Source: an uncultured bacterium (GTDB taxonomy: Bacteria; Lernaellota; Lernaellaia; Lernaellales; Lernaellaceae). Taken from it: DNA of 64,000 bases. The position numbers and the translations under genes were made by a program. The stretch covers positions 10,979 through 74,978 of the forward strand of contig CAZEDX010000014.1 of the NCBI GenBank assembly GCA_964511015.1, read 5' to 3'. Below, one piece after another: positions 12,441-62,773 of this stretch. The notes below the pieces were generated by a model, which saw only the letters and a list, made by a program, of their open reading frames with translations, ran no database searches and was not told the origin of the DNA. Position 1 is the stretch's first letter. Each line of letters starts with the position of its first letter.

Positions 12441-13010
12441 ATGAAAACGATGACCAAGAGCCCGATTCTGTTGTTCTTCCTGCTGCTCGCGCTCGCCTTT
12501 GGGTTGCAGGGGATATTCGCCTGCGACGACGACGATGATGACGACGACACCAGCGCCGATGATGACAACGATGATGACAATGATGATGACGATGACGACG
12601 ATGTCGCCGACGATGACAGCGACGACGACGGCACCGACGATGACGTGTCTGACGACGATGTCACCGACGACGATGTGACCGACGACGACGTCACCGACGA
12701 CGACGTCACCGACGACGATGCGGCCGACGACGACGTGGTGGCCGGTCCGGACTACCCGAAAAACCACGCCGCTACGTGGGACTGCTACCTGTGCCACGCC
12801 GCGGAGCTCATGAATTGCTCCACCGCCGAGCCGCACGGCCATGCGCACTCCGCGCCGGCCGATTGTGTCGCCTGCCATTCCGCCAGCGGCACGAATTACA
12901 ACGGCTGCACCGGCGAGCACGGCGACGACAATTGCACGCTCTGCCACGGCCGCAACATGCACGGGAAGAAGTTCGCCAACTCCGCCCAGTGCCGGGTGTG
13001 CCACCAGTAG
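12441..13010 (+). CDS. Tetraheme c-type cytochrome lipoprotein with a long poly-Asp tether
   Basis: Lipoprotein signal LLLALAFGLQGIFAC. About 80 aa of D-rich linker, DDDDDDDDTSADDDNDDD...DDDVTDDDVT. Four CxxCH motifs (CYLCH, CVACH, CTLCH, CRVCH) within ~90 aa. GGAGG RBS. Confidence 0.8.
   Translation: MKTMTKSPILLFFLLLALAFGLQGIFACDDDDDDDDTSADDDNDDDNDDDDDDDVADDDSDDDGTDDDVSDDDVTDDDVTDDDVTDDDVTDDDAADDDVVAGPDYPKNHAATWDCYLCHAAELMNCSTAEPHGHAHSAPADCVACHSASGTNYNGCTGEHGDDNCTLCHGRNMHGKKFANSAQCRVCHQ
12651..12737 (+). repeat. 15-bp tandem codon repeat (GACGACGAYGTSACC)x6 encoding (DDDVT)n
   Basis: Direct reading shows six consecutive 15-nt units with only wobble differences. Confidence 0.9.
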
Positions 13011-13275
13011 GTGGAGTCCCGGTTCAGGAACCCAAAACCAAACGAACCAGCCGTTCGCTCTGGCTCAGCGCGATTCACGCGACTGGGCCAGGGAGGTCTG
13101 GCGAGTGGCCACAGCCCTCTCTCCCCCTACTTAACGTAAATTGCATACCCCTTTTGGGTCGCATTCGTCCCGTCGGTTTTTCTAACTAGTCAGGAGAATG
13201 CGGGAATAAAAATTTTTCGGTCTGGCAAAAACGGGCCGAGGTAATTGCGGGTGGCAAAGCGCTGACGAGCCCGGC

Positions 13276-15222
13276 TCAGCCGTTACATCCGCCGCCGCCG
13301 TATACGCCGGTGTCGTTGTCGTCGTAGCCGATCAGGTCGTTGCCGTCGTCATCGTCATCGCCGCTGCTGCCGTCGTCATCATCGTCGTCATCGTCATCAC
13401 CACCGGAATCGTCATCGGTATCGTCGTCATCGGCTCCCGCAGTGACCGTCAGTTCCACCTCGTCGGGCGTGGCGGCCCAGGCGCAATCGTAGACGGTCAG
13501 CCGGAAACGGTAGACGCCGATTACGACCGGTTTGACGATCGGGTAGGCCGTGTCGGCTTCCTGAATCTCCAGGTCAACCGGCCCGTCAAGTTGTTCCCAA
13601 TCGTAGATCAGCAGCGCGTTTTCCGGATCGTTGGACCCGCTGCCGTCGAGCATGACCGGCTGGCCGGCGGACGATTCCAGATCGTCTCCCGCATCGGCGA
13701 TCGGCGGCTCGTTGACGTCGGGAGATAGAATCAGATACGCCATGCCAGACTCCACGCGAGCCGGGTCGGTCGCGTCGGCCGCGCGGGCGCCCAGCACCAG
13801 GTCGGCCGTGCCGGTGCCGTCGACATCCGCCGTGGCTACCGCGAAGCCGAGCTGATCTTCCGTCGTCGCGGCCACCACCTTGTGCAACGGTGCGTCCGTC
13901 GCCAGATTGACATGGTGCTCCAACGGGAAGTCATCGCTGCCGGCGATCACGTATACCAGCGCGCGCCCGGCGGTCAGGGTGCGCGGCGCGCCGATCACCA
14001 GATCCGCCGAGCAGTCGGCGTTCATGTCGCCGAAGGCCAGGGCGAAGCCGAAGCGTTCGCCCACCGTGGCGCCGGTGATGGTCACGTCGGCCGTCGCCAG
14101 ACTGACCACGCTCGCCCACTCGGCGCGGCCGTAAACCACGAACACCTGTCCCTGGTTGCCTTTGGCCGGTACGTTTGGGGCGGACAAGGCCAGGTCGGTG
14201 GCGCCGTCGCCGTCGAAATCGCCGCAAGCGACCGCCAGGCCGAGGTTGTCGAGCTGGTCGGCCCATTCGAATTCGATGTCGGGCGGGTCGTTGGCCAGGT
14301 CGAGCGAGAGTTCGTCGGACAACCACCGGCCGAAGATCGCGTAGACCGCGCCGTCGTTGCCTTCCTTGCCGCCCGGCAGCGGCAGCGATACGCCGGGCGC
14401 GCCGAGGATCAGATCGTCCTGGCCGTCGACGTTGATGTCGCCCAACGCCAGGCCGAGTCCGAGGCGCTGGCTGGTCGTGGCGCTGCTGATCTCGACGTCG
14501 GCCGTGACCGCGCGCAGGTCGATTTCGGTGACCCAGTCGCCGCCGCGGAAGCCGAACACCTTGCCGGCCGCCGGGTGGCCGACGTCCTCATAGTTGGGGG
14601 CCGCGGCAAACAGGTCGGTCTTGCCGTCGCCGTCGAAGTCGCCCACCGCCACGCGAGCGCCGAACTGGCCGTCGGCCTTGGCGCCCCAGATGGTCACGTC
14701 GGCATCGGCAGCCTGCAGCGTACCGGGCCACGTTTCGCCGCCGAAGTAGATCAGCACCACGCCGAGCAGCAGTTCGCCGTCCGGACCGGTCGCGCGCGGC
14801 GCGCCGATGGCCAGGTCGGCGATGCCGTCGTCGTTGAGGTCGCCGATGGCGATGCTCGAACCGAGGTACTGCTCGGCGGCGCCCAGCACCACCACGTCGG
14901 CCGCGTCGGCAGATAGGTCGAGATCGACACCCTGCACGCCTTGCCGCGAGAGCAACAAATACACGGCGCCGCGACGGTAGTTCACCGGCGCCAGGCCCAT
15001 GCCGGGCGCGCCGAAGGCGAGGTCGGGCGAGCCGTCGCCGTCGAGATCGCCGGCGGCCACGGCATAGCCTAGATTGGCGTCGTCTTGCGGGCCGAGCAGG
15101 GTGGACGAAGCCGTGCCTGCCTCGGCCAGATCGAAGGTGTCGGCTACCGCCGGCGTTGCCGCCGCGAGCCACAAAACCGCCCAGGCCAGCGCGAAACACG
15201 ATAGCCGAATCAAGCGCATCAT
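13276..15222 (-). CDS. FG-GAP (integrin-alpha-like) repeat protein; secreted; poly-Asp tail ending GGGGCNG
   Basis: Signal peptide MMRLIRLSCFALAWAVLWLAAATPAVA. Repeated FG-GAP cores (VGDFDGDGKTDL, GDLNDDGIADLAIGAP, CGDFDGDGATDLALSAP...). Tail DDDDTDDDSGGDDDDDDDDDGSSGDDDDDGNDLIGYDDNDTGVYGGGGCNG then stop. Confidence 0.8.
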   Translation of the reverse strand: MMRLIRLSCFALAWAVLWLAAATPAVADTFDLAEAGTASSTLLGPQDDANLGYAVAAGDLDGDGSPDLAFGAPGMGLAPVNYRRGAVYLLLSRQGVQGVDLDLSADAADVVVLGAAEQYLGSSIAIGDLNDDGIADLAIGAPRATGPDGELLLGVVLIYFGGETWPGTLQAADADVTIWGAKADGQFGARVAVGDFDGDGKTDLFAAAPNYEDVGHPAAGKVFGFRGGDWVTEIDLRAVTADVEISSATTSQRLGLGLALGDINVDGQDDLILGAPGVSLPLPGGKEGNDGAVYAIFGRWLSDELSLDLANDPPDIEFEWADQLDNLGLAVACGDFDGDGATDLALSAPNVPAKGNQGQVFVVYGRAEWASVVSLATADVTITGATVGERFGFALAFGDMNADCSADLVIGAPRTLTAGRALVYVIAGSDDFPLEHHVNLATDAPLHKVVAATTEDQLGFAVATADVDGTGTADLVLGARAADATDPARVESGMAYLILSPDVNEPPIADAGDDLESSAGQPVMLDGSGSNDPENALLIYDWEQLDGPVDLEIQEADTAYPIVKPVVIGVYRFRLTVYDCAWAATPDEVELTVTAGADDDDTDDDSGGDDDDDDDDDGSSGDDDDDGNDLIGYDDNDTGVYGGGGCNG

Positions 15223-23082: not shown

Positions 23083-23446
23083 CGAAAGCCACCCATCTGA
23101 AGCGGCGGAACACGTTCATCCCGAATTCGGGACGCACATTCCCTTTAACAACTTGAAAAAAAAGTATCATCGGCATCGGAATTAGCAAAGTAACGTACTA
23201 CGCAACCATCTTGGAGGGAGGTTATCTTGGCTATTTACTATGTGGACAACGACTAGTCGGACGATTCGGGCAACGGCACTTTCCGGGCCAGCGTACTTCG
23301 ATAGGGGATTGAGTTGTTTTCGATCCTGGGAGAACACATGGTTATTTTTGCAATTTGGGAGGCGGCTGGAACATGTTGAACGAAGCCCGTCAAAAACAAT
23401 TCCGAATTTGGGACGAGAGTGAATCAATAACAAATCGTTTGGAGAA

Positions 23447-24295
23447 TTGAAGAGGGATTTCATGTGGCTAGTGGTTCCCCTTGGCCTTCTCCTCGTGACG
23501 TTGATAGCGACCGAATTGTCAGCTTCTTGGGACGTATACCATTTCAACAACGATAGCTACGAAATCGATTCGCGCTGCACGGCCAGCAACAACCTTCCGG
23601 GCGTAGCAATGCTGAGTCGCTATCGCGCCGAGATGGCCGACTGGGGATGGAGCAATTCCATCTTCTACCCCGTCCAGCATCCGATGTTCGTTGATCCCGA
23701 CCTATTTAGCGGTGGACAAGATTACGAATACATTGATGACGCGAGGATTGCCTGGATGACTGGGCACGGTGGTACGTCGGGGACGATTCCGGCTTTCTTT
23801 CGAATGAAATTGCAAACGTTCGAAAGCAGCGTCCTTGAGTCATGCTACTTGGCGCCCGAATTCACCATGCGGCTTGGCGACCAAGGGATGCACCTCGATT
23901 GGTTGCATGTCATTTCTTGCCATAGCTTGCAAACCGACGACAACTCATATCAGTCGTGGAGATCGGTTTTCACCGGAGTACACCAGATTCACGGGTTTCA
24001 TGGCCTGGCGTGGTTTAGGAGTGCGAATAGCAATCTGGCGTATGCGTACGAGGATTTTGCGCACGACTCTCACAGCGCTGCGCTTGCGTTAGAATGGGTG
24101 GCTGAACTATTTTTCCCGGAAGAATTCGAGGATCCATTCGGATCGGGGATATATCATGACCAATGTCCCGTAGCATATGTTGGCCGGGACACCGTCGCTT
24201 CTGCGTTGACGATCTTGAATAACGAGAAATACCCAATTCCTGACCGCGTGCCACCAAGCCTGACATATTCCGACGAATTCACACCAACTCACTAG
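23447..24295 (+). CDS. Hypothetical secreted protein (lower-GC island)
   Basis: Signal peptide MKRDFMWLVVPLGLLLVTLIATELSAS. 282 aa. Local GC visibly lower than flanks. No recognisable domain. Confidence 0.55.
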   Translation: MKRDFMWLVVPLGLLLVTLIATELSASWDVYHFNNDSYEIDSRCTASNNLPGVAMLSRYRAEMADWGWSNSIFYPVQHPMFVDPDLFSGGQDYEYIDDARIAWMTGHGGTSGTIPAFFRMKLQTFESSVLESCYLAPEFTMRLGDQGMHLDWLHVISCHSLQTDDNSYQSWRSVFTGVHQIHGFHGLAWFRSANSNLAYAYEDFAHDSHSAALALEWVAELFFPEEFEDPFGSGIYHDQCPVAYVGRDTVASALTILNNEKYPIPDRVPPSLTYSDEFTPTH

Positions 24296-24322
24296 TACCA
24301 ACTTGACTGTATCAGCAACCCT

Positions 24323-25054
24323 GTGGTTCTCCTGTACAACGACGCGGACACGCTCGGCCTAGATATCTCTGACGCCATTCTGGAAAAGGACCATTCCGGT
24401 TGGTCGATACTCACTAATGACCGTTTCGAGATCCGTCGCAGGGAAACCAGCGGCCATTTTACGTTCGTAGACAAAACGATTTCAGACCTGAAACATTTCC
24501 CAGAGGGCGAAGAGCCGGTGACTGAAGAAGACCTGACAAACAAATCGATCGATTTGTTGCAGTCGCTCGACGTTCCTTCAGACGAAATCCACGACATTTC
24601 GGTGAAGCGGATCATCGATCAAGCAGAGGATGAATTCGGCTTCGATGTCGGAGATCGTTTAACGGCCGCTTTTCTGGTGTATGTCGACCGCGTGATAGCA
24701 AACACACCGGTCGAAGGATCGTACGCCAAACTGTTGTTCACGACCGAAGGGCGCCTGATAAAAGTGAGCACTAGGTGGCGGAACGTGACCGGGCAAGCAA
24801 TTGACATATTGCCGATCATTGAAGAAGAACTACTTCGCAATACCGCATTGGCTGTTTCTGCCAAAAGCCTTCTTCATGGTAAGGTTGACGTGTTCTATGG
24901 TGGGTATGCCTATGTCGAGGAATTTGGTGAAGACGCGGTCGAACAAAAAACCTTTGACCTGCATTTCGTTTTTCGTTACGCGACGGCTGATTCGCCATTG
25001 ATGTCTGGCGTATTGAATGCGGTGATGGAATCCGCGCTTGCGGGAGGAGTCTGA
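24323..25054 (+). CDS. Hypothetical protein (island)
   Basis: 243-aa acidic ORF, with start/stop overlap with the next gene (ATGA at 25051-25054). Confidence 0.5.
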   Translation: MVLLYNDADTLGLDISDAILEKDHSGWSILTNDRFEIRRRETSGHFTFVDKTISDLKHFPEGEEPVTEEDLTNKSIDLLQSLDVPSDEIHDISVKRIIDQAEDEFGFDVGDRLTAAFLVYVDRVIANTPVEGSYAKLLFTTEGRLIKVSTRWRNVTGQAIDILPIIEEELLRNTALAVSAKSLLHGKVDVFYGGYAYVEEFGEDAVEQKTFDLHFVFRYATADSPLMSGVLNAVMESALAGGV

Positions 25055-25539
25055 TGAAAGCCCGGTGCAGCCTCATCCTTCTAGGTCTCGTACTTATGAT
25101 TGGACAAGAAGCCATCGGCAACCCGATCCAACTTGGCGTCATCGAGGACGCGTTCCAGTTCAAACAGAACGTGTGCCTGGTCTTCCAAGGCTATTTTTCC
25201 AGTGGACCCTACCGTTTGGAGCGTACGATGGACAGTCAGACAATACGCATCATGGACGACTGGGAGATACCGGCGGAAGATCCGCTGAAGGAATGCGGGG
25301 ACTACCGTCTCTATATCTTCGAAGACGCATGCGTACCAGCCGGCCAAGCGTTGTACACCCTGTTCCAGAAGATGCCCAGCGGCTGGGACAATGCCGGTTC
25401 CGAAACCATTCAAGTTGAAGACAGCGGTGAGGAATGCGGCAACGACGACGACTGCGCGGCGCTGATCGATCCGGACGAATACCTGCCGTGTAATTTGGAC
25501 GACGACGACAACGACAACGATGACGGGTGCGGGTGTTGA
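25054..25539 (+). CDS. Small secreted protein with poly-Asp/Asn tail ending GCGC (island copy of the tail family)
   Basis: Signal peptide MKARCSLILLGLVLMIGQEAIG. Tail ...CNLDDDDNDNDDGCGC then TGA. Confidence 0.65.
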   Translation: MKARCSLILLGLVLMIGQEAIGNPIQLGVIEDAFQFKQNVCLVFQGYFSSGPYRLERTMDSQTIRIMDDWEIPAEDPLKECGDYRLYIFEDACVPAGQALYTLFQKMPSGWDNAGSETIQVEDSGEECGNDDDCAALIDPDEYLPCNLDDDDNDNDDGCGC

Positions 25540-25548
25540 GGAAGCAAC

Positions 25549-25908
25549 GTGTCTGAATGGAATCCCATCGCCCTCTGGTTTGCCTTCTTCGTTTTCGGCC
25601 AAATGATCGAGACCCCAATCTACGTTGCGTTCGCGCGCGGCCGGGCTCCATGGTGGCGTGGGGCCTTGGGCGGCTTTGCCTGCACCACAATTACCCACCC
25701 GCTGCTTTGGTTCGTCTGGCCCACTGTCGTGCACCCGTGGCTTGCCTATGCAATCAGCGGCGAATTGATCACCTTCGCCGTCGAGTCGATCGTGTTCTAT
25801 CTTGTTGTCCGTTCGGTCTCTCTTGCTCGCGCGGCGTCGTCGTCGTTTGCCGCCAACCTAGCCAGCCTGCTGGCTGGGATAATAGTGCAGTGCGTGTTTC
25901 AATTATAA
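25549..25908 (+). CDS. Small polytopic membrane protein (3-4 TM), function unknown
   Basis: 119 aa, hydrophobic helices. Starts 10 nt after the GCGC-tail gene. Confidence 0.5.
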   Translation: MSEWNPIALWFAFFVFGQMIETPIYVAFARGRAPWWRGALGGFACTTITHPLLWFVWPTVVHPWLAYAISGELITFAVESIVFYLVVRSVSLARAASSSFAANLASLLAGIIVQCVFQL

Positions 25909-26133
25909 AATTTCAACATAGCCGGTTAGTCTCGTCCGAAATCGGGATTTGTCTTGGACAGTGATCACTCCGGAGCCCAAGTCCGTTTGCGACCTGCGCG
26001 CCGTGGCCGTCGATGTTGATGGCGACGTCTTCGCTGTCGGCGGGGCGGAAAACTCCTCGCGCATGATCACGGTCAAATACTCCCCCACCGGCGACGAGTT
26101 ATGGGTGGCCGAGTTCGACGCGGACAACCCATG

Positions 26134-26208
26134 ACCGTCGCCGCCCTCGGCCCGCCCCCCGGCGCGAACGTGAAGCGGGGCGAGAGCTTAGTCACGCTGG
26201 ATTAGGGG
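26134..26208 (+). repeat. Direct repeat copy B (displaced duplicate of the decarboxylase 3' end); att-like scar
   Basis: Encodes TVAALGPPPGANVKRGESLVTLD then stop, with no upstream gene body. Preceded by a high-GC SBBP-like beta-propeller fragment (25949-26134). Confidence 0.8.
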
Positions 26209-27725: not shown

Positions 27726-27753
27726 TCGGTGGAGAACGTGCGAATGAGCAATC

Positions 27754-28251: not shown

Positions 28252-28275
28252 CGGATGCTGTTCAAGGAGTGACCT

Positions 28276-36160: not shown

Positions 36161-37609
36161 ATGCGCCTGATGGTCGTCATGCTGTTATGCTTGCTGTCTG
36201 CCGCTGCGCTCGCGGCCTGCGCCGGTTCGCCGGACGACGATGACGCCGCCGCCGCGCCCGACGACGATACCGACGACGATCAATCCGTCGATGACGACAC
36301 GCTTGATGACGATGCGATCGATGACGACGCCGTTGACGACGACCTGACGGATGACGACACGGCCGATGATGATGTGGCCGGTCCGTTCTGCGCCGACTTC
36401 GAGCGCTACTGGCATACGCTGGACGAGCGATATGCCTATTTCATCGAGAAGAACATCGATTGGGACGCGGTATACAGTGCCCAGCGCGACGCCGCGTGCG
36501 CCGAGGTTGATGTCGCCGCCTTTCAACTGCGGTTGGCGGCCGTCACTGCGGCGCTCGGCGACAGTCATACGTGGTCGAGCCTCAACCGCGTGCCCGCCGC
36601 GCGGCAGCCGGCGCGGGACGCGACCGGCGTGTGTCTGCAGCGCGACGCGGCCGGCGTGCATCTGTCTCATCTGACTGCTGAAGCACAAAGCGCGGGGTTG
36701 TGGTTGGGTGATCGTGTGGTTGCTTTGGACGGCGAAGCGGTCGACGCGGTACTCGCCCGCGCCCGTTCGTGGGAAGGCTGCTCGACCGATCAATGTTGTG
36801 ACCGCTGGGTGCTGCCGTATGTCGATCGCTACGCGCGCGGGCCGCAACAGGTGGTCTATACGGTCGAACGCGACGGCGAGCAAATGGAAATTCCACTCGC
36901 GCGAAATGGATCGGCCTGGTACGGCACATGCCAGAGCGACCCCTTGCGCGAGTTTCTCGCCGACGCCGCCGGCACCTATGTCCATGCCAAGCCGATCGGC
37001 GACGATTTGGCGTACGTGCAACTGACCAATCTCAACGACGGCTATCAAGAGGCGATTCTGCGGGAGCTCGACGCCGCGCTGGCGGCGTTTGCCGATCGCG
37101 ATGGACTCGTGTTCGACGTGCGCGACAACCATGGCGGCTCGGATCTGGTGGCCATGGCCGTGCTGGCCCGGTTTCTGGGCGAGGTGATCTGGCCCGTGCA
37201 TGTGCGCTACAAACTCGGCCCAGCGCACGACTCGTTCACGCCGTGGATTCCGGAACCGATTCTTCCTGGCCTGGCGCCGACCAGCCAACCGGTGGTGTTG
37301 CTCGTCAACGGCGGCTGCCTCAGCGCGGCCGACTTTTTTGTCGCCGGCGCATCGCTGGTCCCTTCGTTTACCCTGCTAGGCACTACTTCCTGTGGCGGCA
37401 CCGGCGCGCCCGACCATGACGTGCTGCCGATCTCGCAGACTACGTATTACTTCTCTCAGATGCAGCGGCGGTATGTACCGACCTGGGAACAGATCGAAGG
37501 GCGCGGCATCGATCCCGACATTGTTGTCGAACCCGATCCGGCTGATCTGGCCGCCGGTATCGACACCCAACTAGCCGCCGCGATCGCATGGTTGCGGGCC
37601 GGTCGCTAG
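36161..37609 (+). CDS. Lipoprotein with poly-Asp tether and S41-family (tail-specific-protease-like) peptidase domain
   Basis: Start at MRLMVVMLLCLLSAAALAAC. Linker DDDDAAAAPDDDTDDDQSVDDDTLDDDAIDDDAVDDDLTDDDTADDD. S41-like blocks VFDVRDNHGG and VVLLVNGGCLSAADFF. Confidence 0.6.
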   Translation: MRLMVVMLLCLLSAAALAACAGSPDDDDAAAAPDDDTDDDQSVDDDTLDDDAIDDDAVDDDLTDDDTADDDVAGPFCADFERYWHTLDERYAYFIEKNIDWDAVYSAQRDAACAEVDVAAFQLRLAAVTAALGDSHTWSSLNRVPAARQPARDATGVCLQRDAAGVHLSHLTAEAQSAGLWLGDRVVALDGEAVDAVLARARSWEGCSTDQCCDRWVLPYVDRYARGPQQVVYTVERDGEQMEIPLARNGSAWYGTCQSDPLREFLADAAGTYVHAKPIGDDLAYVQLTNLNDGYQEAILRELDAALAAFADRDGLVFDVRDNHGGSDLVAMAVLARFLGEVIWPVHVRYKLGPAHDSFTPWIPEPILPGLAPTSQPVVLLVNGGCLSAADFFVAGASLVPSFTLLGTTSCGGTGAPDHDVLPISQTTYYFSQMQRRYVPTWEQIEGRGIDPDIVVEPDPADLAAGIDTQLAAAIAWLRAGR

Positions 37610-38212: not shown

Positions 38213-40249
38213 CTAGCAGCCGCACCCACCACTATCGTCATCGTCGTCACCAGCCGCGTCATCGTCATCCGCGTCGGTGTCGTCGTCTGCGCTGTCGTCG
38301 TCTGTCGCCTCGCCCGCCTGCAGATACTCGATCACGTTGACGAGTAGGCGTTGCGCCGGCATGGAATAGGCGTCGGGCGCCTGGACGCCGAAGGCCCACA
38401 GGGCGTACTTCCCGTCTTGGATCGCCAGCGGATAGTGACTCAGATAGGTCAGGTCGCGGCCCAGGAATTCCACGCCTGCCGGCGAACTGGCGTCGTCGTG
38501 CAACCCGAGATACGCGGCCGCCGCGGCCAGCACGTCGAAATCGCTGCCGTCGAGACCCAATTCAAACGGGTCATGCCACACCGCATGATCCAGCGACTGC
38601 GGCGCAAACCCTACGGCCGGATCCAGCTCCAAGCAGTTCTCCGCCGACAGGTACTGCTCGGTGTAGTCGAACACGTGCACGCCGCCGTTGTTGGCAACGA
38701 TCGGTTTGCCGGAGTTGATCAACAGCTTGGCTTTGTCTTCGGTCCACGCCTCCGCGCCGGCGTTGTCGTCGACCATGAACAGCTCGTATTTCGCCAGATC
38801 GGCTTTGCCGCCGAGCGCGCCGATCTCCAGCAAATCCACCGTATAGCCGACGCTGGCCAGGAACTGCTGGAACAGCAGCGCCTGCACATCGTCGCCGGCG
38901 TACACGTAGCCGATGTCCACCGGCTCGCTCTGCACGTATTCGATCAGGTTGACCAACAGGCGCTGGCCGGCGGAGGTGTACATCGACGGACCCATCACCG
39001 CGTAGGCCCATACGGCGTAGTGGATGTTTTCAACCGCCACCGCGTAGTAGTCGGTGTAGCTCTCGCACTGACCGAGGAACTGCACGCCGGCCGGATTCGA
39101 GCCGTCGTTCTGCAGACCCCGAATCGTCATCGGCGAGATGAGCATGGGGAGCGGACCGCCGTTATCGGACTGGTCGACCTCATACGGCTCGTGCCAGATC
39201 GGGTGCGCATCGGCCGCCGGTTCCACTGCCTGCTGGTCGACGACGCCGGCAAAGTGATTCGCGCCGAGGTAGCCGTCGGCGTACGCCAGCAACGACAGGC
39301 CGTCGCCGTCGCCGATGATCGGCTTGCCGGTGTTGAGCACGAGCGCAGCGCGCTCCGCCGTCCAGTCCAGCGTGGTGTCGCTGTCCATAAAGAACACTTC
39401 GATTTCCGCCAGGTCGGGCGCGGCGTCGAGTTCGGCGATTTGCAGCAGTGACACGCGGTAGCCTTCGCCATTGAGAAAGAGGGCGAAGTCTTCCGCGCGC
39501 GAAAGGTTGACGCTGTAGACGTAGGCGATGTCGGTTTCCTCGTCGCCCGTGTCGTCGTCAGCCGCGTCATCGTCGGCCGCGTCATCGTCGGCCGCGTCAT
39601 CGTCGGTCACATCATCATCCGCCGTATCGTCGTCGGCGGTGTCGTCGTCGATCACGTCGTCGTCGATGGAATCGTCGTCGATCACGTCGTCGTCGACCGA
39701 GTCGTCATCCACCAGCGGTGACGCCTCCACCGTCACATCGTCGACGCCCCAGCTCGAAGCCAGCGCGCCGCCGTAGTATGAGAAATAGAAACGGATGCGC
39801 ACGTCGGGCTCGCCGTCCGCCTGCGGAATGGCGATGGTCTGGATCTCGCCGGTCACCGTGCCGTCGGTGGTGTAGACCGGCTGCCAGGTTTCGCCGCCGT
39901 CCAGCGAGATGCTCGCCTGGCCCATGCTGATGGCGCCGGTCTGGGTGAAGTAGTGGTTGAACGACAGCTCCGCGCCGGTGTAGCCGGTCAGATCGATCGC
40001 GTCGGATTCGATTGCCGCGTTCCATACCGGCAGGACACAGCCGGAGCGAACGACTTCGGCGTATTGATCGTCACCGAAATAGGCAATCAGGGCGCTGGCC
40101 GTACCAGGCGTGTGCCACTTGCAGGATGAGGTTTGAAAACCGGTGAATTGCCCCGCGCCGTCAGAGAAATTTTCGAGAAAAACGGTTTCCGCGGAAGCCG
40201 AAATGGCAGTAACCAGGATGACAATCAGGGCGAACCACAGATTTCTCAT
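38213..40249 (-). CDS. Secreted protein with an internally duplicated domain, an internal poly-Asp linker, and a C-terminal poly-Asp + GCGC tail
   Basis: Signal peptide MRNLWFALIVILVTAISASA. Central DDDSVDDDVIDDDSIDDDVIDDDTADDD... separates an N-terminal domain from two homologous domains (SGKPIIGDGDG... / SGKPIVANNGG...). Tail ...DDDDAAGDDDDDSGGCGC then TAG. Confidence 0.7.
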   Translation of the reverse strand: MRNLWFALIVILVTAISASAETVFLENFSDGAGQFTGFQTSSCKWHTPGTASALIAYFGDDQYAEVVRSGCVLPVWNAAIESDAIDLTGYTGAELSFNHYFTQTGAISMGQASISLDGGETWQPVYTTDGTVTGEIQTIAIPQADGEPDVRIRFYFSYYGGALASSWGVDDVTVEASPLVDDDSVDDDVIDDDSIDDDVIDDDTADDDTADDDVTDDDAADDDAADDDAADDDTGDEETDIAYVYSVNLSRAEDFALFLNGEGYRVSLLQIAELDAAPDLAEIEVFFMDSDTTLDWTAERAALVLNTGKPIIGDGDGLSLLAYADGYLGANHFAGVVDQQAVEPAADAHPIWHEPYEVDQSDNGGPLPMLISPMTIRGLQNDGSNPAGVQFLGQCESYTDYYAVAVENIHYAVWAYAVMGPSMYTSAGQRLLVNLIEYVQSEPVDIGYVYAGDDVQALLFQQFLASVGYTVDLLEIGALGGKADLAKYELFMVDDNAGAEAWTEDKAKLLINSGKPIVANNGGVHVFDYTEQYLSAENCLELDPAVGFAPQSLDHAVWHDPFELGLDGSDFDVLAAAAAYLGLHDDASSPAGVEFLGRDLTYLSHYPLAIQDGKYALWAFGVQAPDAYSMPAQRLLVNVIEYLQAGEATDDDSADDDTDADDDDAAGDDDDDSGGCGC
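39541..39720 (-). repeat. 15-bp tandem codon repeats encoding (DDDxx)n internal linker
   Basis: e.g. GCCGCGTCATCGTCG x3 followed by related units. Confidence 0.85.
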
Positions 40250-40655: not shown

Positions 40656-41450
40656 ATGAGTCAAGAGTTGCTGAAGAGACTGGTACTGCTGGTCGCGGTA
40701 CTGGCGGCCTGCGCGCTGGTGGTGGGTTGCGGGGGAGATGACGACGACAATGACGACAGCACAGCCGATGACGACGCGGGCGACGACGACGCGGGCGACG
40801 ATGATGATGATATCGTCGATGACGACGACAATGTCGACGATGATGCCGATGACGACGCCGACGACGACGCGGATGACGATGCCGATGATGACGATTCGCA
40901 TGGGGACGGCGACCAGGCGACCAACGGCGGGTTCGAAACCGGCGATACCACCGGCTGGGATGGCGAATGGCCGTGGGACCAGTTGGTCTATTCCGCCGAC
41001 CCTGGCGACGACGACTCAACGCCCGACGACGACAGCGAATGGTACGTCACGCCGCACACCGGCAACTACGCCGCGTGGTTCGGCCAGACCTTCCAGGAAG
41101 GCACCGCGTGGCTGGGCCAAACGTTCGACGTGCCGGACAACCTGATGGCGGGCACGGTTGGGTTCTGGTACTACATGTCGAAGTTCGGCAACTGCCAGTT
41201 TACCTTCAACGCGACGCTGGTGGATGCCAATGACACCGACCTGGTGCTGGCCAACCTCGGCGCGTGGACAGAAGCCGATGCGGCGTTCATTGCCCACTAC
41301 CAGGAATTGAGCTATCCCCTGTCGGGGACGGAGATTGCCGACCTGGCCGGCCGGGACACGATGTTGCGCTTCGACTGGGCCGGCTCCGGTGCGCTCATCA
41401 GTGCGTGCTACATCTACCTGGACGACGTGACTTTCAACATGACTTGGTAA
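40656..41450 (+). CDS. Lipoprotein with poly-Asp tether and C-terminal domain of unknown function
   Basis: Start at MSQELLKRLVLLVAVLAACALVVGCGGDDDD with GGAGG RBS. About 70 aa of D-rich linker. Confidence 0.65.
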   Translation: MSQELLKRLVLLVAVLAACALVVGCGGDDDDNDDSTADDDAGDDDAGDDDDDIVDDDDNVDDDADDDADDDADDDADDDDSHGDGDQATNGGFETGDTTGWDGEWPWDQLVYSADPGDDDSTPDDDSEWYVTPHTGNYAAWFGQTFQEGTAWLGQTFDVPDNLMAGTVGFWYYMSKFGNCQFTFNATLVDANDTDLVLANLGAWTEADAAFIAHYQELSYPLSGTEIADLAGRDTMLRFDWAGSGALISACYIYLDDVTFNMTW

Positions 41451-51582: not shown

Positions 51583-51669
51583 CGTCGGCCGGCCGGGCCG
51601 CATTTTCCATTTTTTTCGCTTCATTCTATGATAGCCGCCGGTGTTTCCCCGCTCGCAAAGGAGAACCCC

Positions 51670-53745
51670 ATGCGCCGTGCATTGTTGACCACGATTATAC
51701 TGTTTCTGCTCAGCGCTCAGGCGTGGGCCGACGAAATTGCGCTCACCTACCGCTTTGCCGAACCGATGTTGGTTGAGCACGTGGACGGCACAGTCGAGCC
51801 GGTGCTCGCCGGCCTGAATCAGTTCCTGGTGCCCGGCTACCCGATCGTGCCGGCGCAGACGGCGTGGGTCGCGTTGCCGCAGGGCCACGAAGTGGTGGCG
51901 GTGCGCGTCGAGGCGGCCAAGGCGCGCGTGGTGGCGCAGGCCACCGCGGCGTGGTGCCCCAATTTCGGGCCGTGGGGCGAACCGATCGAACATGAAGCCC
52001 AACCGAATTACGACATCTATGCCGGTACGGCACCGTATCCGAGTGCGCGTTTTCAGCCATTGTCGGTGCAGCACAAGCGCGGCGTGGCGATTCTGCCGGT
52101 CGTGCTCTACCCGGTGCAATACGTGCCGGGGAACGAAGAGCTAACCTTTACCAGCGAGTTGACCGTGCGCGTAACCACGCGGCCGCAGCGGCGGGCGGAG
52201 GCAGAGCTGTTGCCGTTCCGCGGCCTGCCCGACGATCTGCGCGAACTGCGCGCGCGCGTCGACAATCCGGAACTTCTCTCCCGGTACGAGGTCGAAACGA
52301 TACCGATGCGCGTCGAAATCGACTACCTGGTCATCACCCCGCAGAAATGGGTGAACGCGCTGCAAGACTACGTGCAGCACAAAGCCGATCTGTTTGGCCT
52401 GCGTTGTGAGATTGTCCCGTTGGAAGACATCCTGGCGCAGATGGCGGGCCAGACCGATCAGAAGAAGATTCGCGACTACATCGTGCAGCGTTACAACGAC
52501 GGACTCCAGTGGGTGCTGATCGTCGGTGACGCCGACCGCGACCGGGAAGTCATCAAGCTGCGTGGTCTGTACGTTTCCGGCACCGACCCCGACGACGGCT
52601 CGACCTACACCGATTCCCGCATGGCCGCCGACCAGTATTATGGCTGTCTGGACGGCAACTACAACCAGAACGGCAACAACTTTTGGGGCGAGCCCAATGA
52701 CGGTCCCGGCGGCGGCGAAGTCGACTTGCTCTATGACGTGCACGTGGGGCGTTTCGCGGTCGAACATTTGTGGGAAGTGAAGATCATGGCCGGCAAGACC
52801 ACGGCGTTCGAAGACGACTACCAAATGCCGCAGCGCCTACTGTTCGTCGGCGAGGAAGCGGACGAAGTCAGCTCCGGCGGCGAGATGAAAGACAAGGTCT
52901 ACGAATATTGTGGCGACCAGACCATGCCGATCACGCGGCTGTACGATTACAACAACCTGTTCAGCCACCAGCACGTCGTAACGGCGATCAATTCCAATCA
53001 GTTCCAGTGGCTGAACCACATGGGCCACGCCGACGTCACCGTCAACATGACGTTCTACCCGTCGACCGTCAACGAGCTGACCAACACGCGTTTCTACCTC
53101 GGCCTGTCGCAGGGCTGCTACTCGGGCAGCGTCGACAGCGTTAGCCTCTATGGGCAGGAATCGGTCGACTGCATGGCCGAGCAGTTCACCGCGAAGACGC
53201 AGCACGCGGCCTTTGCCTACTTCATGAACACGCGCTACGGATTCTACCTGCGCGGCCGGCTCGACGGCCCAAGCAACGTCTATGACTGGGAGTTCGCCGA
53301 TGCGCTGTTCAACGACGGCATCCCGAACATCGGCGCGGCGATGGACAAGGGCAAGGAAGACTGCATCGGCTTGCTCTCGCCGCAGAACATGATGCGCTGG
53401 TCGTGGTACACGCTCTTCCTGTTCGGTGATCCGCAAACGCCGATGCGCCTGAACTGTGACAACGACGGCGACGGTTACATGTCGGCCTACTGCGGCGGGC
53501 TGGGCGAAGACTGCAACGACGTCGACGGCGCGGTGAATCCGGACGCGGCCGAAACGTGCGACGACGGCGTCGACAACAACTGCAACGGCCTGGCCGACGC
53601 CGAGGATCCGGCTTGCGCGGTGGCCGACGACGACGCCGATGACGACGCGGTCGACGACGATGCCGTCGGCGACGACGACGCGGCCGGTGACGACGACGGG
53701 GCGGACGACGATGACAACAACGACGACGGCGGGTGTGGCTGCTGA
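51670..53745 (+). CDS. C25 (gingipain-like) cysteine peptidase with MopE-like metal-binding motif, poly-Asp linker and terminal GCGC
   Basis: Start at MRRALLTTIILFLLSAQAWA with AGGAG RBS. C25 blocks EIDYLVITP, WVLIVGDADRD, DQYYGCLDGNYN, HVGRFAV. Putative catalytic His/Cys in NHMGHADVT and GLSQGCYSG. MopE-like motif YCGGLGEDCNDVDGAVNPDAAETCDDGVDNNCNGLADAEDPAC. Ends DDDDNNDDGGCGC then TGA. Confidence 0.75.
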   Translation: MRRALLTTIILFLLSAQAWADEIALTYRFAEPMLVEHVDGTVEPVLAGLNQFLVPGYPIVPAQTAWVALPQGHEVVAVRVEAAKARVVAQATAAWCPNFGPWGEPIEHEAQPNYDIYAGTAPYPSARFQPLSVQHKRGVAILPVVLYPVQYVPGNEELTFTSELTVRVTTRPQRRAEAELLPFRGLPDDLRELRARVDNPELLSRYEVETIPMRVEIDYLVITPQKWVNALQDYVQHKADLFGLRCEIVPLEDILAQMAGQTDQKKIRDYIVQRYNDGLQWVLIVGDADRDREVIKLRGLYVSGTDPDDGSTYTDSRMAADQYYGCLDGNYNQNGNNFWGEPNDGPGGGEVDLLYDVHVGRFAVEHLWEVKIMAGKTTAFEDDYQMPQRLLFVGEEADEVSSGGEMKDKVYEYCGDQTMPITRLYDYNNLFSHQHVVTAINSNQFQWLNHMGHADVTVNMTFYPSTVNELTNTRFYLGLSQGCYSGSVDSVSLYGQESVDCMAEQFTAKTQHAAFAYFMNTRYGFYLRGRLDGPSNVYDWEFADALFNDGIPNIGAAMDKGKEDCIGLLSPQNMMRWSWYTLFLFGDPQTPMRLNCDNDGDGYMSAYCGGLGEDCNDVDGAVNPDAAETCDDGVDNNCNGLADAEDPACAVADDDADDDAVDDDAVGDDDAAGDDDGADDDDNNDDGGCGC

Positions 53746-57616: not shown

Positions 57617-57635
57617 TGTCGCGACTGCTCCATGG

Positions 57636-58289: not shown

Positions 58290-58292
58290 CGT

Positions 58293-59051: not shown

Positions 59052-59077
59052 GGAGGTTTGATTGATCGAAATGGGCG

Positions 59078-61429
59078 CTATTCGTAGGCGATGGTCGGGT
59101 CGCCCTCGGTCAGCGTGATGAACGAATTGACGTTCGCCGCGTTCCAGGTTTCGACTTCGCCGGTCGGCCATTGCACTTCGATCGAGTCGATCGCGCCTTC
59201 GGTGCGCAGGCCGAAGTGCTGGCGGAGCTGCGGCGTGGCGCCGTAATGGCCGCGCGGACCCTGCACATAACGTACCTGCACCAGGCTGCCGGCGGTCACG
59301 GTGATCTTCGCGCCGATTGCGTCGCGGTTCGAATCCGTGCCGACCAGGCGGATCTGCACCCAGTTGTAACCGGTGTCCAGGTCGTTGCGGAACAGGAACA
59401 CGCCGCCGCCCGGGCTGCGGTAAGCGGCGAGCAGGTCGAGGTCGCCGTCGGCGTCGAAGTCCGCCCAGGCGTTGCCGGTGCAATCGTGAACGGCCACGCC
59501 CGCCCAGTAGGTCGTGTCCATGAGCGTGCCGTCTTCCTGCTGCTCGTAGATGCGGCTGTAGTGGCCGTCGTAGAGGGCCGACATGAACAGGTCGAGGCGG
59601 CCGTCGTTGTTGTAGTCGATGAAGCTCGGATCGACGTCGCCTTCGTCCACGCCGAAGCCCAGTTCTTCGTTGGCGATGGTGTAGACGTAGTCTTCTTCCG
59701 GGCCGCCGTTCAAGCTGATGCTCGATGGGCCGGAATCGGGCTGATAGCGCGGGTGGGCAATCATCGACAACACGGCGTCGAAGTAGCCGTCGTTGTTGAT
59801 GTCGCCGAAGTCGCTGCCGAAGCCGTTGCCCGCTTGGCGATCGCGCGCGGCGTCGAGGTGCTTTTCGTGGCCGACTTCGTCGAACGTGCCGTCGCCGTTG
59901 TTTTCGAACAGGAAGCTGCGCATGCGGCCGTAGTTGGAGACGAAGATGTCGTACCAACCGTCGTTGTTGTAGTCGACCCAGTTCACGCCGTAGCAGGCGG
60001 CCGGGCTGCCTTCGTTGACGCCGGATGCGGCGGAGACGTCGGTGAAGGTGCCGTCGCCTTCATTGTGGAACAGGTAGTCCGGATCGCAAGGCGAATACGG
60101 ATACTCTTTCAACCAGGCGCCGACGTAGAGGTCGAGCCAGCCGTCGCGGTCGTAGTCGCCGAGCGACGCACTCGACAGGTTGCCGTACACCGCCAGGCCG
60201 GAATCGGTCTTTGGCGTGAAGTGTCCGCTGCCGTCGTTTTCGAGAATCAGGCTGAAGTGCTCTTCCACTGTGTCGTCGTCCGCGGTGGTATCGTCGTCGG
60301 CCGTGTCGTCGTCGGCCGTATCATCGTCCGCCGTATCGTCGTCCGCCGTGTTTTTGTCGGCCTTGTCGCCGCCGCGGGCCGTGGGCCACGGCACCGGCGC
60401 GATGATGATTGCGTCCTGGTCGCCGTCGTTGTCGTAGTCGACCATGGCCGTGGTTTGCGAATAGTATTCGCCGTTCAGCCCGCTTTCGGCCGACAGGTCG
60501 GTGAACGTGCCGTCGCCGTTGTTGTCGTAGTACACGATGCGGCTGCCGAGCGTCGCGTCGCCCAGCTTGGTCAGGATCATGTCGTAGTCGCCATCGCCGT
60601 CGATGTCGGACCACGCGGTGCGGTGCTGGCCGGTCACGTTGATGCCGGCATCGATGGTGACGTCGGTGAAGTATGACGGCTTGTCCCACACGCAAAAGCG
60701 GTTACCGACCAGGTGAATCATGTAGTAGTAGGAGGCATAGCCCCACTCGAACGGCTCGTTCTCGATGGCCCATTCTTCCTGGTAGTAGCGGCTGCGCAGG
60801 TAGGTGTTGGGCGCGTGGCTGTAGGCCAGCGTGGGCAAGCCGTTGTCGGACAGATGCTCGTAGATGACCCAGAACTTCGTGCTGGGCATGAACATCAAAC
60901 CCTTGTCGGAGACGTCGACTTCGACCCAACCTTCTTGGGTTACGTCGACGGTGACCGGTTCCATGTATTCGACCGGCGTCACGTCTTCGTTCAGCGGCTG
61001 CAGCGTCGGTTCCGAACCCAGCAGGTCGGCGTATACGTGGATCTTCGCCTGGCCGCCCGGTTCCATGAAGTACATCTTGATCTTCTGCACGTGGAAGGGT
61101 GTGTCGAGAATGAACTGCGTGCCTTCCATTTCGCCATTGAGGTATTCGTCTTCGCCGTACAACGGGTCGTTGTCGTCGATGTAGAACTCGCCGGCTTCGG
61201 CTGCGCAAGGATTGTCGTACCAGCTGCAATGTGCCGCGTACTGGTCGAGCAACGGATCGCCGCACTGGCCGGAGGTGTCGTCATCGGCCGTGTCGTCGTC
61301 GCTGTCGTCGTCGCCGCCGCCATTGTCGTCATCGTCGTCACCGCCGCCGCAATCACAACCGGCCGCGGCGATCAACGCGAGAAAGGACAAAAACAAAAGA
61401 AAACCCAACCCAAAACGTTTCATGATCAA
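59078..61429 (-). CDS. CRTAC1-family lipoprotein (FG-GAP/VCBS-like repeats + ASPIC/UnbV C-terminal domain) with N-terminal poly-Asp tether and internal (TADDD)n insert
   Basis: Lipobox FLALIAAAGCDCGGGDDDDDNGGGDDDSDDD. Repeats DIDGDGDYDMIL, VDYDNDGDQDAII, DYDRDGWLDLYVG. UnbV_ASPIC-like end NRDAIGAKITVTAG...QLRQHFGLRTEGAIDSIEVQWPTGE. Confidence 0.75.
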   Translation of the reverse strand: MIMKRFGLGFLLFLSFLALIAAAGCDCGGGDDDDDNGGGDDDSDDDTADDDTSGQCGDPLLDQYAAHCSWYDNPCAAEAGEFYIDDNDPLYGEDEYLNGEMEGTQFILDTPFHVQKIKMYFMEPGGQAKIHVYADLLGSEPTLQPLNEDVTPVEYMEPVTVDVTQEGWVEVDVSDKGLMFMPSTKFWVIYEHLSDNGLPTLAYSHAPNTYLRSRYYQEEWAIENEPFEWGYASYYYMIHLVGNRFCVWDKPSYFTDVTIDAGINVTGQHRTAWSDIDGDGDYDMILTKLGDATLGSRIVYYDNNGDGTFTDLSAESGLNGEYYSQTTAMVDYDNDGDQDAIIIAPVPWPTARGGDKADKNTADDDTADDDTADDDTADDDTTADDDTVEEHFSLILENDGSGHFTPKTDSGLAVYGNLSSASLGDYDRDGWLDLYVGAWLKEYPYSPCDPDYLFHNEGDGTFTDVSAASGVNEGSPAACYGVNWVDYNNDGWYDIFVSNYGRMRSFLFENNGDGTFDEVGHEKHLDAARDRQAGNGFGSDFGDINNDGYFDAVLSMIAHPRYQPDSGPSSISLNGGPEEDYVYTIANEELGFGVDEGDVDPSFIDYNNDGRLDLFMSALYDGHYSRIYEQQEDGTLMDTTYWAGVAVHDCTGNAWADFDADGDLDLLAAYRSPGGGVFLFRNDLDTGYNWVQIRLVGTDSNRDAIGAKITVTAGSLVQVRYVQGPRGHYGATPQLRQHFGLRTEGAIDSIEVQWPTGEVETWNAANVNSFITLTEGDPTIAYE
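60286..60350 (-). repeat. 15-bp tandem codon repeat encoding (TADDD)x4 inside the CRTAC1-like gene
   Basis: GTCGTCGGCCGTRTC-type units repeated four times. Confidence 0.85.
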
Positions 61430-61525
61430 TCGCTCCTTATTGCGGTTCGCAGCGCGGATTATTGCCGATTCAGGCGGTCTTGGGAAGCGGCGGGCGTGTA
61501 CGGCACCCGCCTCAAAATCGCCTGT

Positions 61526-62773
61526 CTATTCCCACACATACAACTGTACGGACAGAAGCTCGATTGGCGTGGTGTGGTAACTGCCGTTGTAGTCGCAGTT
61601 GCCGGGCTGATCGTCGAACACACAGCCTTCGCAGTAATTGTTTTCGTCTCCGGCGCCGGGGCGGCAGGTGTTTTCGTAGGCCACGCCCTCGTCCACTACG
61701 ATGTCGTAGCCAATGACGTTTTCCACGCCGGCCAACACGTCGTCGGTCACGTCGACGATTTGCGGCTCCACCGGCGCGCCCGGGCACCAGCCGTTGCGGT
61801 TGTAGGGCCAGGTGCCGTCCTGGTCCTTCAACGGATTGTGCGCGCAGTCGCCGCGCCAGGGATTGAACCAATACGAAGTGCCGTTGACCAGCACCTGATG
61901 GTCGAGCGAGCAGAACTCGCCGCAGTTGCTTCGGTTGCCTTGGCCGTGGCCGGTGGCGACCACGCGCAGTTCCGCGCGCGAAACGGTGGCTGGCAGCAGG
62001 GCCGTCGCCTCGCCGAGCTGCGTGGGCACGGAATTGTCGGGGTTGCCGAGCTCCAGCACGACCCACGGCCAAAGATTGAAGATCTGGTCGGGCGTGTTTT
62101 CGTCCTTCGCCGGGTGGAAGATGAACTTGAGCGTCACGCGCCAACCATGGCCGGAGGACGAGTCGGGCCCAACCCAGGTGTCGATCAGCGAGCGGATCGT
62201 TTGCGTGCCGACCAGCAGGTTTTTGTAGGCCGTCACGTCGACCAGCATGCACATGCCGATGTTGTACGGCGTGATGTAACGCCACAACTCCATCACCTCT
62301 TCGTCGACCGTACCCGGATCGTTGACCAGATAAACGCTGGCCAGGCGGTCCCAATCGTCGCAATCGCCGTCGGCGGGGCAGGACAGTTCCAGGCGCATGG
62401 TCACCTGCTCCCAATCGCCGGAGGTCGGGAAATTCACCTCGGCATTGATCGTGCGCAGGTCGGGGTCGCCGTAGTACTGATCGGCCAGGTCGAAGGCCGT
62501 GATCACCGTGGCGTCGGCCGGCTCGTCTTCCTCGGTGCAGCCGTACCACGGCGGACCGGGCCATTCTTCTTCAACCGTGTCATCGTCGGCGGTGTCGTCG
62601 TCGGCGGTGTCGTCATCCACGTCGTCGTCGTCGCCGTCATCGTCATCGTCATCACCGGCATCGTCATCAATCGCGTCGTCGTCGGCCCCATCGTCGTTGT
62701 CGTCGTCGTCGCCGACGCACGCGGTGAAGGAAAACAACGCCAGCAACAAAGCCAGCAGCAACCACTGTTTCAT
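61526..62773 (-). CDS. Lipoprotein with poly-Asp tether and Cys-rich C-terminal domain of unknown function
   Basis: MKQWLLLALLLALFSFTACVGDDDDNDDGADDD... C-terminal domain has conserved Cys pairs. 4-nt overlap with corA upstream. Confidence 0.6.
   Translation of the reverse strand: MKQWLLLALLLALFSFTACVGDDDDNDDGADDDAIDDDAGDDDDDDGDDDDVDDDTADDDTADDDTVEEEWPGPPWYGCTEEDEPADATVITAFDLADQYYGDPDLRTINAEVNFPTSGDWEQVTMRLELSCPADGDCDDWDRLASVYLVNDPGTVDEEVMELWRYITPYNIGMCMLVDVTAYKNLLVGTQTIRSLIDTWVGPDSSSGHGWRVTLKFIFHPAKDENTPDQIFNLWPWVVLELGNPDNSVPTQLGEATALLPATVSRAELRVVATGHGQGNRSNCGEFCSLDHQVLVNGTSYWFNPWRGDCAHNPLKDQDGTWPYNRNGWCPGAPVEPQIVDVTDDVLAGVENVIGYDIVVDEGVAYENTCRPGAGDENNYCEGCVFDDQPGNCDYNGSYHTTPIELLSVQLYVWE

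Follow-up and report, generated by a model that had tools for sequence, protein, structure and literature searches.

Cellulases, with their Pro/Thr-rich linkers, are one example of composition-biased linkers in secreted multidomain enzymes, and disordered N-terminal linkers have only recently been shown to matter for lipoprotein trafficking. In Escherichia coli, about one outer-membrane lipoprotein in two has a disordered linker longer than 22 residues, and it is length and disorder, not sequence, that trafficking by the Lol system needs (10.1101/2021.01.05.425367). In Bacteroides fragilis, the lipoprotein export signal has the consensus C-SDDDD and is sufficient for surface exposure (PMC5080379). 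At the other end of the polypeptide, the MYXO-CTERM sorting signature of Myxococcota sets a generic GCGC, with an invariant Cys, beside a disordered region (PMC11980579); the proposal is that this Cys receives a lipid, perhaps from Lgt, with the topology of the lipobox reversed, and that a myxosortase cleaves distal to it (PMC11980579; 10.1101/2023.06.07.544157). Here we analyse 64,000 nucleotides from an uncultured bacterium (contig CAZEDX010000014.1 of assembly GCA_964511015.1, positions 10,979 to 74,978; the whole stretch is called the window below), in which five lipoprotein genes encode an aspartate-rich tract of tens of residues between the lipobox Cys and a folded domain. We read poly-Asp tracts of this kind as disordered polyanionic spacers that join exported domains, the N-terminal ones tethering a domain to a lipidated Cys, and put the probability of that reading at roughly 0.7.

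A preliminary description of the window had reported five genes with a lipobox Cys and an Asp-rich tract, and translation bears out all five. Their features are these:

12441..13010, plus strand: lipoprotein with a four-haem module; signal peptide ends GIFAC, Cys codon 12522-12524
12525-12752, plus strand: poly-Asp tether of the 12441 gene, 76 residues, 64% Asp, net charge -49
36161..37609, plus strand: lipoprotein S41 peptidase (Pfam Peptidase_S41, 1.3e-17); lipobox LAAC, Cys codon 36218-36220
36233-36397, plus strand: poly-Asp tether of the 36161 gene, after the spacer AGSP
40656..41450, plus strand: lipoprotein with a rare-family domain; lipobox VVGC, Cys codon 40728-40730
40737-40913, plus strand: poly-Asp tether of the 40656 gene, after the spacer GG
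40914-41450, plus strand: cargo of the 40656 gene, about 180 residues, a very rare family (NGGFETGD...W)
59078..61423, minus strand: CRTAC1-like lipoprotein (FG-GAP_3, 4.7e-38; UnbV_ASPIC, 1.6e-15); lipobox AAGC, Cys codon 61355-61357
61256-61354, minus strand: N-terminal Asp-rich tether of the 59078 gene; spacer DCGGG
60272-60367, minus strand: second, inter-domain tract of the 59078 gene, (DDDTA)n
61526..62773, minus strand: PNGase F-like lipoprotein; lipobox FTAC, Cys codon 62717-62719
62579-62710, minus strand: poly-Asp tether of the 61526 gene, after the spacer VG

Genes in this gene-dense window, whose guanine-plus-cytosine (GC) content is 55-66%, were called by codon statistics and the gene ends were read; the CRTAC1-like gene starts at an ATG at 61423, not at the TTG at 61429 that had been assigned before. 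All five products share one anatomy: a signal peptide, the lipobox Cys, zero to five small residues, the Asp-rich tract and a folded domain. Every one of the signal peptides (5/5) has Lys or Arg near the start and a hydrophobic core, with a maximum Kyte-Doolittle mean over 10 residues of 3.0-3.5. Set against the pattern [LVI][ASTVI][GAS]C, LAAC and VVGC are canonical lipoboxes, and AAGC, FTAC and IFAC are relaxed forms; in an alignment of 37 orthologues of the 61526..62773 protein the lipobox Cys is nearly invariant (at least 90%). The tracts of the 12441, 36161, 40656, 59078 and 61526 genes are 76, 55, 61, 33 and 51 residues long (40-80 had been claimed), are 48-64% Asp, contain no Lys, Arg or aromatic residues, and carry net charges of -49, -28, -39, -16 and -34. 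The junctions had been transcribed correctly (FAC DDDDDDDD, AAC AGSPDDDD, VGC GGDDDD, AGC DCGGGDDDDD and TAC VGDDDD), and the rule that Gly-Gly follows the Cys immediately fits 40656..41450 strictly and no other gene, the rest reading C-D, C-A-G-S-P, C-V-G and C-D-C-G-G-G.

The cargo behind these tethers consists of hydrolases, binding modules and one cytochrome, and the lipoproteins of the window that have no poly-Asp include a periplasmic protease of the DegP/HtrA type. The cytochrome (12753-13010) is a domain of about 85 residues with four CxxCH haem-binding motifs and no match in Pfam or sequence relative in PDB; it follows the longest of the five tethers (76 residues, with Asp at position +2), and the product could serve to carry electrons while tethered in the periplasm or at the surface. 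For the PNGase F-like product, an AlphaFold2 model built on 37 aligned sequences (predicted template-modelling score, pTM, 0.80) gives mean predicted local distance difference test (pLDDT) values, in blocks of 10 residues, of 42-59 over the first 70 residues, leaves residues 14-72 without secondary structure, and rises to block means of 84-98 from about residue 71 to the end. The folded part aligns with PNGase F (1pnf) at a template-modelling (TM) score of 0.81 on the target and E = 5e-21, and the model as a whole is consistent with a folded enzyme domain at the end of a disordered leash.

Tracts of this composition were counted by a simple definition (at least 50% Asp over 30 residues, in a six-frame scan). 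The window has 13 of them, spread over 12 open reading frames, and a matching scan of 1.37 Mb from 80 other bacterial genomes, a control set of DNA originally fetched for another purpose, yields none. All 12 carriers have cleavable signal peptides, so that 12/19 exported proteins of the window carry a tract against 0/23 non-exported ones (Fisher p = 4.6e-6), and no tract occurs in other reading frames, non-coding DNA or cytoplasmic genes of the window. Tracts occupy three positions only: after the lipobox Cys, between two domains, or before a C-terminal Cys tail. Those at the N-terminus are found in 5/10 lipoproteins of the window and in 0/9 proteins with signal-peptidase-I signals (p = 0.03), and among the tracts collected from relatives the lipobox Cys precedes the N-terminal tract in 42/42. 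The earlier idea was to fall if acidic tracts proved equally common in cytoplasmic proteins or non-lipoproteins; it stands, since no cytoplasmic protein carries such a tract. A tract of the lipobox type stops exactly at the start of the conserved domain. What had been proposed, a polyanionic spacer that tethers domains to a membrane, thus keeps its N-terminal half (lipobox Cys before the tract, an end at the domain boundary, predicted disorder) and loses both the Gly-Gly rule and the restriction to lipoproteins: poly-Asp is not lipoprotein-specific and is the general spacer of this lineage for exported proteins. Nor is it a mark of a salt-in halophile with an acidic proteome, which is excluded; proteins without a signal peptide are balanced in Asp plus Glu against Lys plus Arg, with isoelectric points of about 4.5-10 and mostly 5.5-9.5, and since cytoplasmic proteins are not acidic the tracts are no halophilic adaptation.

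The tracts are not homopolymers. Asp runs are exactly three long in 76/107 cases, and the distance from the start of one run to the start of the next is 4 or 5 residues in 69/85, the one or two residues between DDD triplets being mostly A, G, T, V, S or N, to give a unit of DDDx or DDDxx. Autocorrelation peaks at lag 5 or 4 (the lag-5 value is 0.88 in the 38213..40249 gene, described below). In the DNA, Tandem Repeats Finder (TRF) detects periods of 12-15 nucleotides, such as a period-15 tandem repeat at 12608-12733, and three tracts hold exact internal repeats of 26-31 nucleotides. The longest DNA common to the tracts of different genes is at most 23 nucleotides, within the range of codon-shuffled controls, which excludes a shared mobile linker cassette; internal repetition without excess sharing between genes argues that each tract evolves in place by local duplication. 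Asp is encoded by GAC in 68% of cases within tracts and 71% elsewhere, so the tracts are ordinary coding sequence, not pure triplet repeats. A trinucleotide-repeat or assembly artefact is excluded by that normal codon use, by the tracts being in frame only in exported genes, and by the recurrence of identical architectures in independent assemblies.

Orthologues show which part of this architecture is kept. The S41 peptidase has 23 orthologues at 51-63% identity, of which one is not a lipoprotein and nearly all have lipobox and poly-Asp, the tract varying from about 25 to 75 residues and ending at the conserved EGPYYQDF. Three of them (P0133, P0136 and P0138, at 54-56% identity) have short neutral linkers, e.g. 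CGSGEGTTGSRPSGQPAVEGPYY, and no poly-Asp; the S41 catalytic domain can thus do without the tract, and the three may represent a sub-lineage that lost it. For the PNGase F-like protein the 120 best relatives are overwhelmingly lipoproteins, and in the 87 orthologues whose lipobox Cys could be identified, a linker of 17-148 residues always precedes the conserved domain (87/87). By composition these linkers are 9 poly-Asp, 44 mixed acidic, 26 Gly/Ser/Thr-rich and 8 other, with poly-Asp among the closer relatives (52-70% identity) and Gly/Ser/Thr in a Polyangia-type group at about 40% identity. A linker in all 87 with differing composition means that the tether is old and positional, and its composition lineage-specific. 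The domain of the 40656 gene has only 12 relatives in an exhaustive search of 1.84 billion representative proteins; the relatives that are full-length and were read all have a lipobox and a long poly-Asp tract (8/8), down to 28% identity. (In one related locus, L082, two tandem paralogues of this domain, at 13247 and 14240, adjoin a PNGase F-like gene.) In three orthologue families, the position of the linker is conserved, with drift in its length and sequence.

The same architecture is found beyond these families. In DNA flanking the relatives, lipobox and poly-Asp occur together on many unrelated proteins (locus L084 has eight such genes in 21 kb), and by a strict pattern 12/20 predicted lipoproteins of the window and five related loci are poly-Asp; about half of the lipid-anchored exported proteins of this bacterium carry a poly-Asp spacer. 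A metagenome scan with the S41 alignment added 6 loci and about 40 kb, which is too little for a proteome-wide census. As to what the lineage is, two named species supply orthologues at 56-59% identity: Candidatus Alcyoniella australis (GCA_030765605.1) and Candidatus Lernaella stagnicola (GCA_030765525.1). Both species are placed in Candidatus Lernaellota (FEN-1099) (PMC9324843), so the window organism appears related to that phylum, on the basis of orthologue identity rather than a marker-gene tree. Placement through the neighbouring type III glutamine synthetase was tried and is uninformative, the best match being at 51% identity.

Among the closest described counterparts are the linkers of E. 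coli RcsF, Pal and NlpD. There, too, a short stretch after the lipobox Cys leads into a disordered segment longer than 22 residues and then a globular domain, about half of the lipoproteins carry such a linker, and its sequence drifts; tracts of 33-76 residues exceed the length by which El Rayes et al. recognise these linkers (more than 22 disordered residues before a globular domain). The difference is one of composition and reach: here the linker is a near-homopolymer of DDD triplets, with a charge of up to -49 and a length of 33-76 residues, more in some orthologues, and the same composition is used between domains and before C-terminal tails, in one uncultured lineage. A similar comparison holds for the Pro/Thr-rich linkers and for the Polyangia-type Gly/Ser/Thr-rich ones, which are likewise lineage-typical, flexible and probably protease-resistant spacers at the junctions of exported domains, whereas the spacer here is poly-Asp, which the searchable literature does not describe as a general linker type. 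The N-terminal class is, then, a compositional variant of the known disordered lipoprotein tether, lineage-wide and apparently undescribed. We found no description of poly-Asp lipoprotein linkers in the literature that could be searched, an incomplete library; the Lernaellota genome paper (PMC9324843) does not mention the trait, and neither the linker nor the Cys tail has a model in NCBIfam or Pfam.

If the tracts are spacers, what is known of lipoprotein biology suggests how they would work. Acylation of the Cys and removal of the signal peptide would fall to Lgt, Lsp and probably Lnt, and the tract, at about 0.35 nm per residue, could then extend to some 12-27 nm by our estimate, a charged leash that would hold its enzyme, binding domain or cytochrome at a distance from the membrane. 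Charge repulsion would hold the leash extended and off an anionic membrane, and lacking common protease sites it should be protected in a protease-rich secretome. Tandem duplication of units of 12-15 nucleotides inside each gene lengthens and shortens the tracts. More speculatively, the acidic run at +2 to +6 may double as a surface-sorting signal similar to that of Bacteroidota; taken with the DegP-type lipoprotein, which has no such run, it may mark lipoproteins for the surface.

Several points weigh against the spacer reading. For lipidation and localisation, as for the extended state, we rely on inference, and the notion of surface export is borrowed from another phylum, Bacteroidota. A plain spacer does not account for the choice of Asp over Gly/Ser/Thr or mixed acidic linkers, nor for the strict DDD-triplet unit. 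The signal-peptide classes come from simple rules of our own rather than from a trained predictor, and the proteome sample is small, the 64 kb window plus about 120 kb from relatives. The loci of Ca. Alcyoniella and Ca. Lernaella have a low density of tracts, one in each locus of about 14 kb, so that density varies. Finally, Asp at +2, the residue for Lol avoidance in E. coli, is found in 2/5 only (the 12441 and 59078 products) and not in the class as a whole; by analogy with the E. coli +2 rule those two (C-D...) would stay in the inner membrane, so that the five products may differ in their destination.

The best of the alternatives is that the acidic run serves first of all for sorting, directing lipoproteins to the surface or to vesicles as in Bacteroidota or, by the E. 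coli rule for Asp at +2, retaining them in the inner membrane. We consider it possible but somewhat doubtful. The residues next to the Cys bear on it directly, and they were tabulated for 36 poly-Asp lipoproteins, drawn from the window and from relatives, in which a Cys can be identified near the tract. The Asp run begins 0-4 residues past the Cys in 27/36, and the commonest layouts are C-G-DDD (10), which is near the C-SDDDD of B. fragilis, and C-DDD (4); GG is the entire spacer in 2 proteins, that of the 40656 gene included. In the window, positions +2 to +6 read DDDDD, GGDDD, VGDDD, DCGGG and AGSPD, and at least two Asp or Glu at about +3 to +6 after a small or polar residue, as in the Bacteroidota export signal, are found. 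The likeness to that signal lies in an Asp run that starts 1-3 residues past the lipidated Cys, behind a small or polar residue, and in its distribution over hydrolases and binding proteins and not over periplasmic housekeeping lipoproteins; about half of the lipoproteins here carry the run, and the periplasmic-type DegP does not. The organism also looks diderm: an OmpA-family protein with a beta-barrel-type domain, encoded in the window, suggests a two-membrane envelope (no Lol genes occur in the window). Yet the Bacteroidota signal is 4-5 residues long and position-critical, whereas these tracts run to tens of residues with a shifting start; 3-5 residues would suffice for sorting, as against the 33-76 seen. 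Several orthologues have 8-15 non-Asp residues between the Cys and the first DDD, and +2 is variable (G 17, D 8, S 4 and A 4 among the 36, and V also occurs). Like tracts stand between domains and at C-termini, where lipoprotein sorting is irrelevant, the host is Lernaellota-related and not a member of Bacteroidota, and surface exposure is putative.

Asp-rich proteins are classical binders of Ca2+ and biominerals, and the tracts could instead bind cations or minerals (Ca2+, Mg2+, Fe, surfaces) at high capacity, enrich ions near the envelope, cross-link to the phosphates of lipopolysaccharide, or fasten cells and enzymes to particles, with tethering secondary. Charges of -16 to -49 per tract are extreme and the DDD-x(1-2) unit is regular, one cargo is a four-haem cytochrome, and modules of Cys-rich repeats adjoin several of the C-terminal tracts. 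The tracts are never free-standing domains and always lie at an anchor-domain or domain-domain junction; orthologues make do with Gly/Ser/Thr-rich or short neutral linkers, and tract length and sequence are poorly conserved, all of which makes this explanation unlikely. Least probable in our view is that the tracts are neutral low-complexity expansions produced by GAY-rich slippage and tolerated only in exported proteins, since the 12-15 nucleotide tandem repeats found by TRF, the exact internal repeats of up to 31 nucleotides, the free variation in length and sequence between orthologues and the three S41 orthologues without a tract, which would suit it, are opposed by restriction to exported proteins and domain boundaries, retention in orthologues down to 28% domain identity, normal Asp codon use with a regular DDD unit, and absence from other frames, non-coding DNA and cytoplasmic genes of a GC-rich window.

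The spacer reading extends to a second class, in which the tract lies before a Cys tail at the C-terminus. Six proteins of the window end [SGD]GCGC-stop and one ends GGGGCNG-stop:

1215..3239, minus strand: lipoprotein with Cys-rich repeats; lipobox LAAGC, linker GEIESDEEG; C-terminal tract 1254-1487, SGCGC-stop, tail end 1215-1232
5435..7714, minus strand: secreted protein, signal-peptidase-I type; C-terminal tract 5453-5638, SGCGC-stop, tail end 5435-5452
7918..10137, minus strand: secreted S8 subtilase, start corrected to MKRLTLLLLLLLAFTAVATA near 10137; C-terminal tract 7936-8037, GGCGC-stop, tail end 7918-7935
13276..15222, minus strand: secreted FG-GAP/PKD protein; C-terminal Asp-rich tract 13312-13464, variant Cys tail GGGGCNG-stop
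25054..25539, plus strand: small secreted protein; short Asp-rich tail, ends DDDDNDNDDGCGC-stop, tail end 25522-25539
38213..40249, minus strand: secreted protein; inter-domain (DDDxx)12 tract 39530-39709, C-terminal tract 38234-38302, SGGCGC-stop, tail end 38213-38233
51628..53745, plus strand: secreted C25 (gingipain-family) peptidase; C-terminal tract 53605-53727, GGCGC-stop, tail end 53728-53745

The class is real and conserved. A poly-Asp-[SG]GCGC tail recurs in the flanking DNA of relatives, and those C25 peptidase orthologues that have a poly-Asp tail (P0149-P0160 and, at a greater distance, P0175) finish in poly-Asp-[GSA]-C-x(0-4), with tails such as GGCGC, GGCG, DGCGN, SGGCN, ACGC and GCAW, in which the first Cys alone is invariant. 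More distant C25 homologues have, in the place of the tail, a type IX secretion system (T9SS) C-terminal domain, dockerin-like repeats or a C-terminal membrane helix, and these replacing modules are known surface-attachment modules. Stop read-through or a selenocysteine after GCGC is excluded: TAA, TGA and TAG all follow the last Cys, and the downstream frames are not hydrophobic. The 1215..3239 gene, said earlier to carry the architecture at both ends, is indeed the sole gene with a Cys motif at each end, with its lipobox Cys and its C-terminal poly-Asp-SGCGC, but its N-terminal linker is mildly acidic and not poly-Asp.

Cys-rich repeats (e.g. CDDG[IV]DNNC...EDP.C and CNG.E.CDE) stand directly upstream of C-terminal tracts at 7918-8150, 53500-53620, 1500-2000 and 5640-5900, and this region is annotated as Pfam PF11617 in some of the C25 peptidase orthologues.

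The C-terminal tails had been called the mirror image of the lipoprotein tethers, which is right in that they exist and that their GCGC has a parallel in MYXO-CTERM (PMC11980579), and less so in their lack of a transmembrane helix and an Arg cluster. As in MYXO-CTERM, a disordered region is followed by a Gly/Cys signature, and the poly-Asp-[SG]GCGC tails resemble the part of a MYXO-CTERM protein that is left after cleavage, except that here the ends are genetically encoded. In place of the MYXO-CTERM transmembrane helix after the motif there is a stop following the last Cys, with no hydrophobic downstream frame, and the Arg-rich C-terminal cluster is missing from the tails of the window, which therefore lack two of the three defining features; no NCBIfam match to MYXO-CTERM was obtained, and no CPBP-family myxosortase is found among the open reading frames of the window scanned with Pfam. 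Given tails with neither helix nor Arg cluster, anchoring through the C-terminal Cys is putative.

The boldest extension would have much of the Lernaellota secretome on poly-Asp leashes with a terminal Cys at either end, the GCGC tail being lipidated or covalently attached, and we regard it as a long shot. To our knowledge, all known C-terminal sorting signals need a transmembrane helix and an intramembrane protease, and the two-ended arrangement, if true, would be a new C-terminal anchoring route that does without them; in that case the anchoring machinery would recognise or require the DDD-x(1-2) unit, or cation bridging at the surface would require it. The N-terminal class alone is of moderate interest, which would be higher if a two-ended, Cys-anchored leash proved true. 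A lineage with near-homopolymeric Asp linkers of 30-90 residues is a natural extreme case, one that bears on linker charge, length and disorder as controls of lipoprotein sorting and on how polyanionic chains are handled in the envelope. It bears as well on acidic export signals outside Bacteroidota, the only group from which we know of acidic lipoprotein export signals so far. The tract also supplies a sequence signature by which to recognise the exported enzymes, probably displayed at the surface, of an uncultured phylum of anaerobic digesters and lake sediments; GCGC tails with no membrane helix could inform how the MYXO-CTERM Cys is modified, and the poly-Asp leashes might be useful as display linkers.

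Three neighbourhoods in the window are worth recording in their own right. The adjacent paralogues at 31360-32145 and 32397-33173 have type IV pilin/pseudopilin N-terminal methylation motifs and end SICG[ML]; their products may belong to a secretion system or a pilus and so have a bearing on surface export. At 46309-48423 and 48420-50495 lie tandem DUF3857 paralogues on the minus strand, with coding regions that overlap by 4 nucleotides; the upstream gene (48420-50495) has a transglutaminase core and a signal of the signal-peptidase-I type, and the downstream gene (46309-48423) encodes a lipoprotein without poly-Asp. The region 23200-28900 is an island of lower GC content (about 54.5% versus about 63%). 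Its genes encode a DUF6345 protein, a small secreted protein with a GCGC tail and a C-terminal fragment of RHS/YD type (26982-27725, containing HRYYDPAVGRYVQ), followed at 27754-28251 and 28276-28713 by paralogous small membrane proteins that look like immunity genes.

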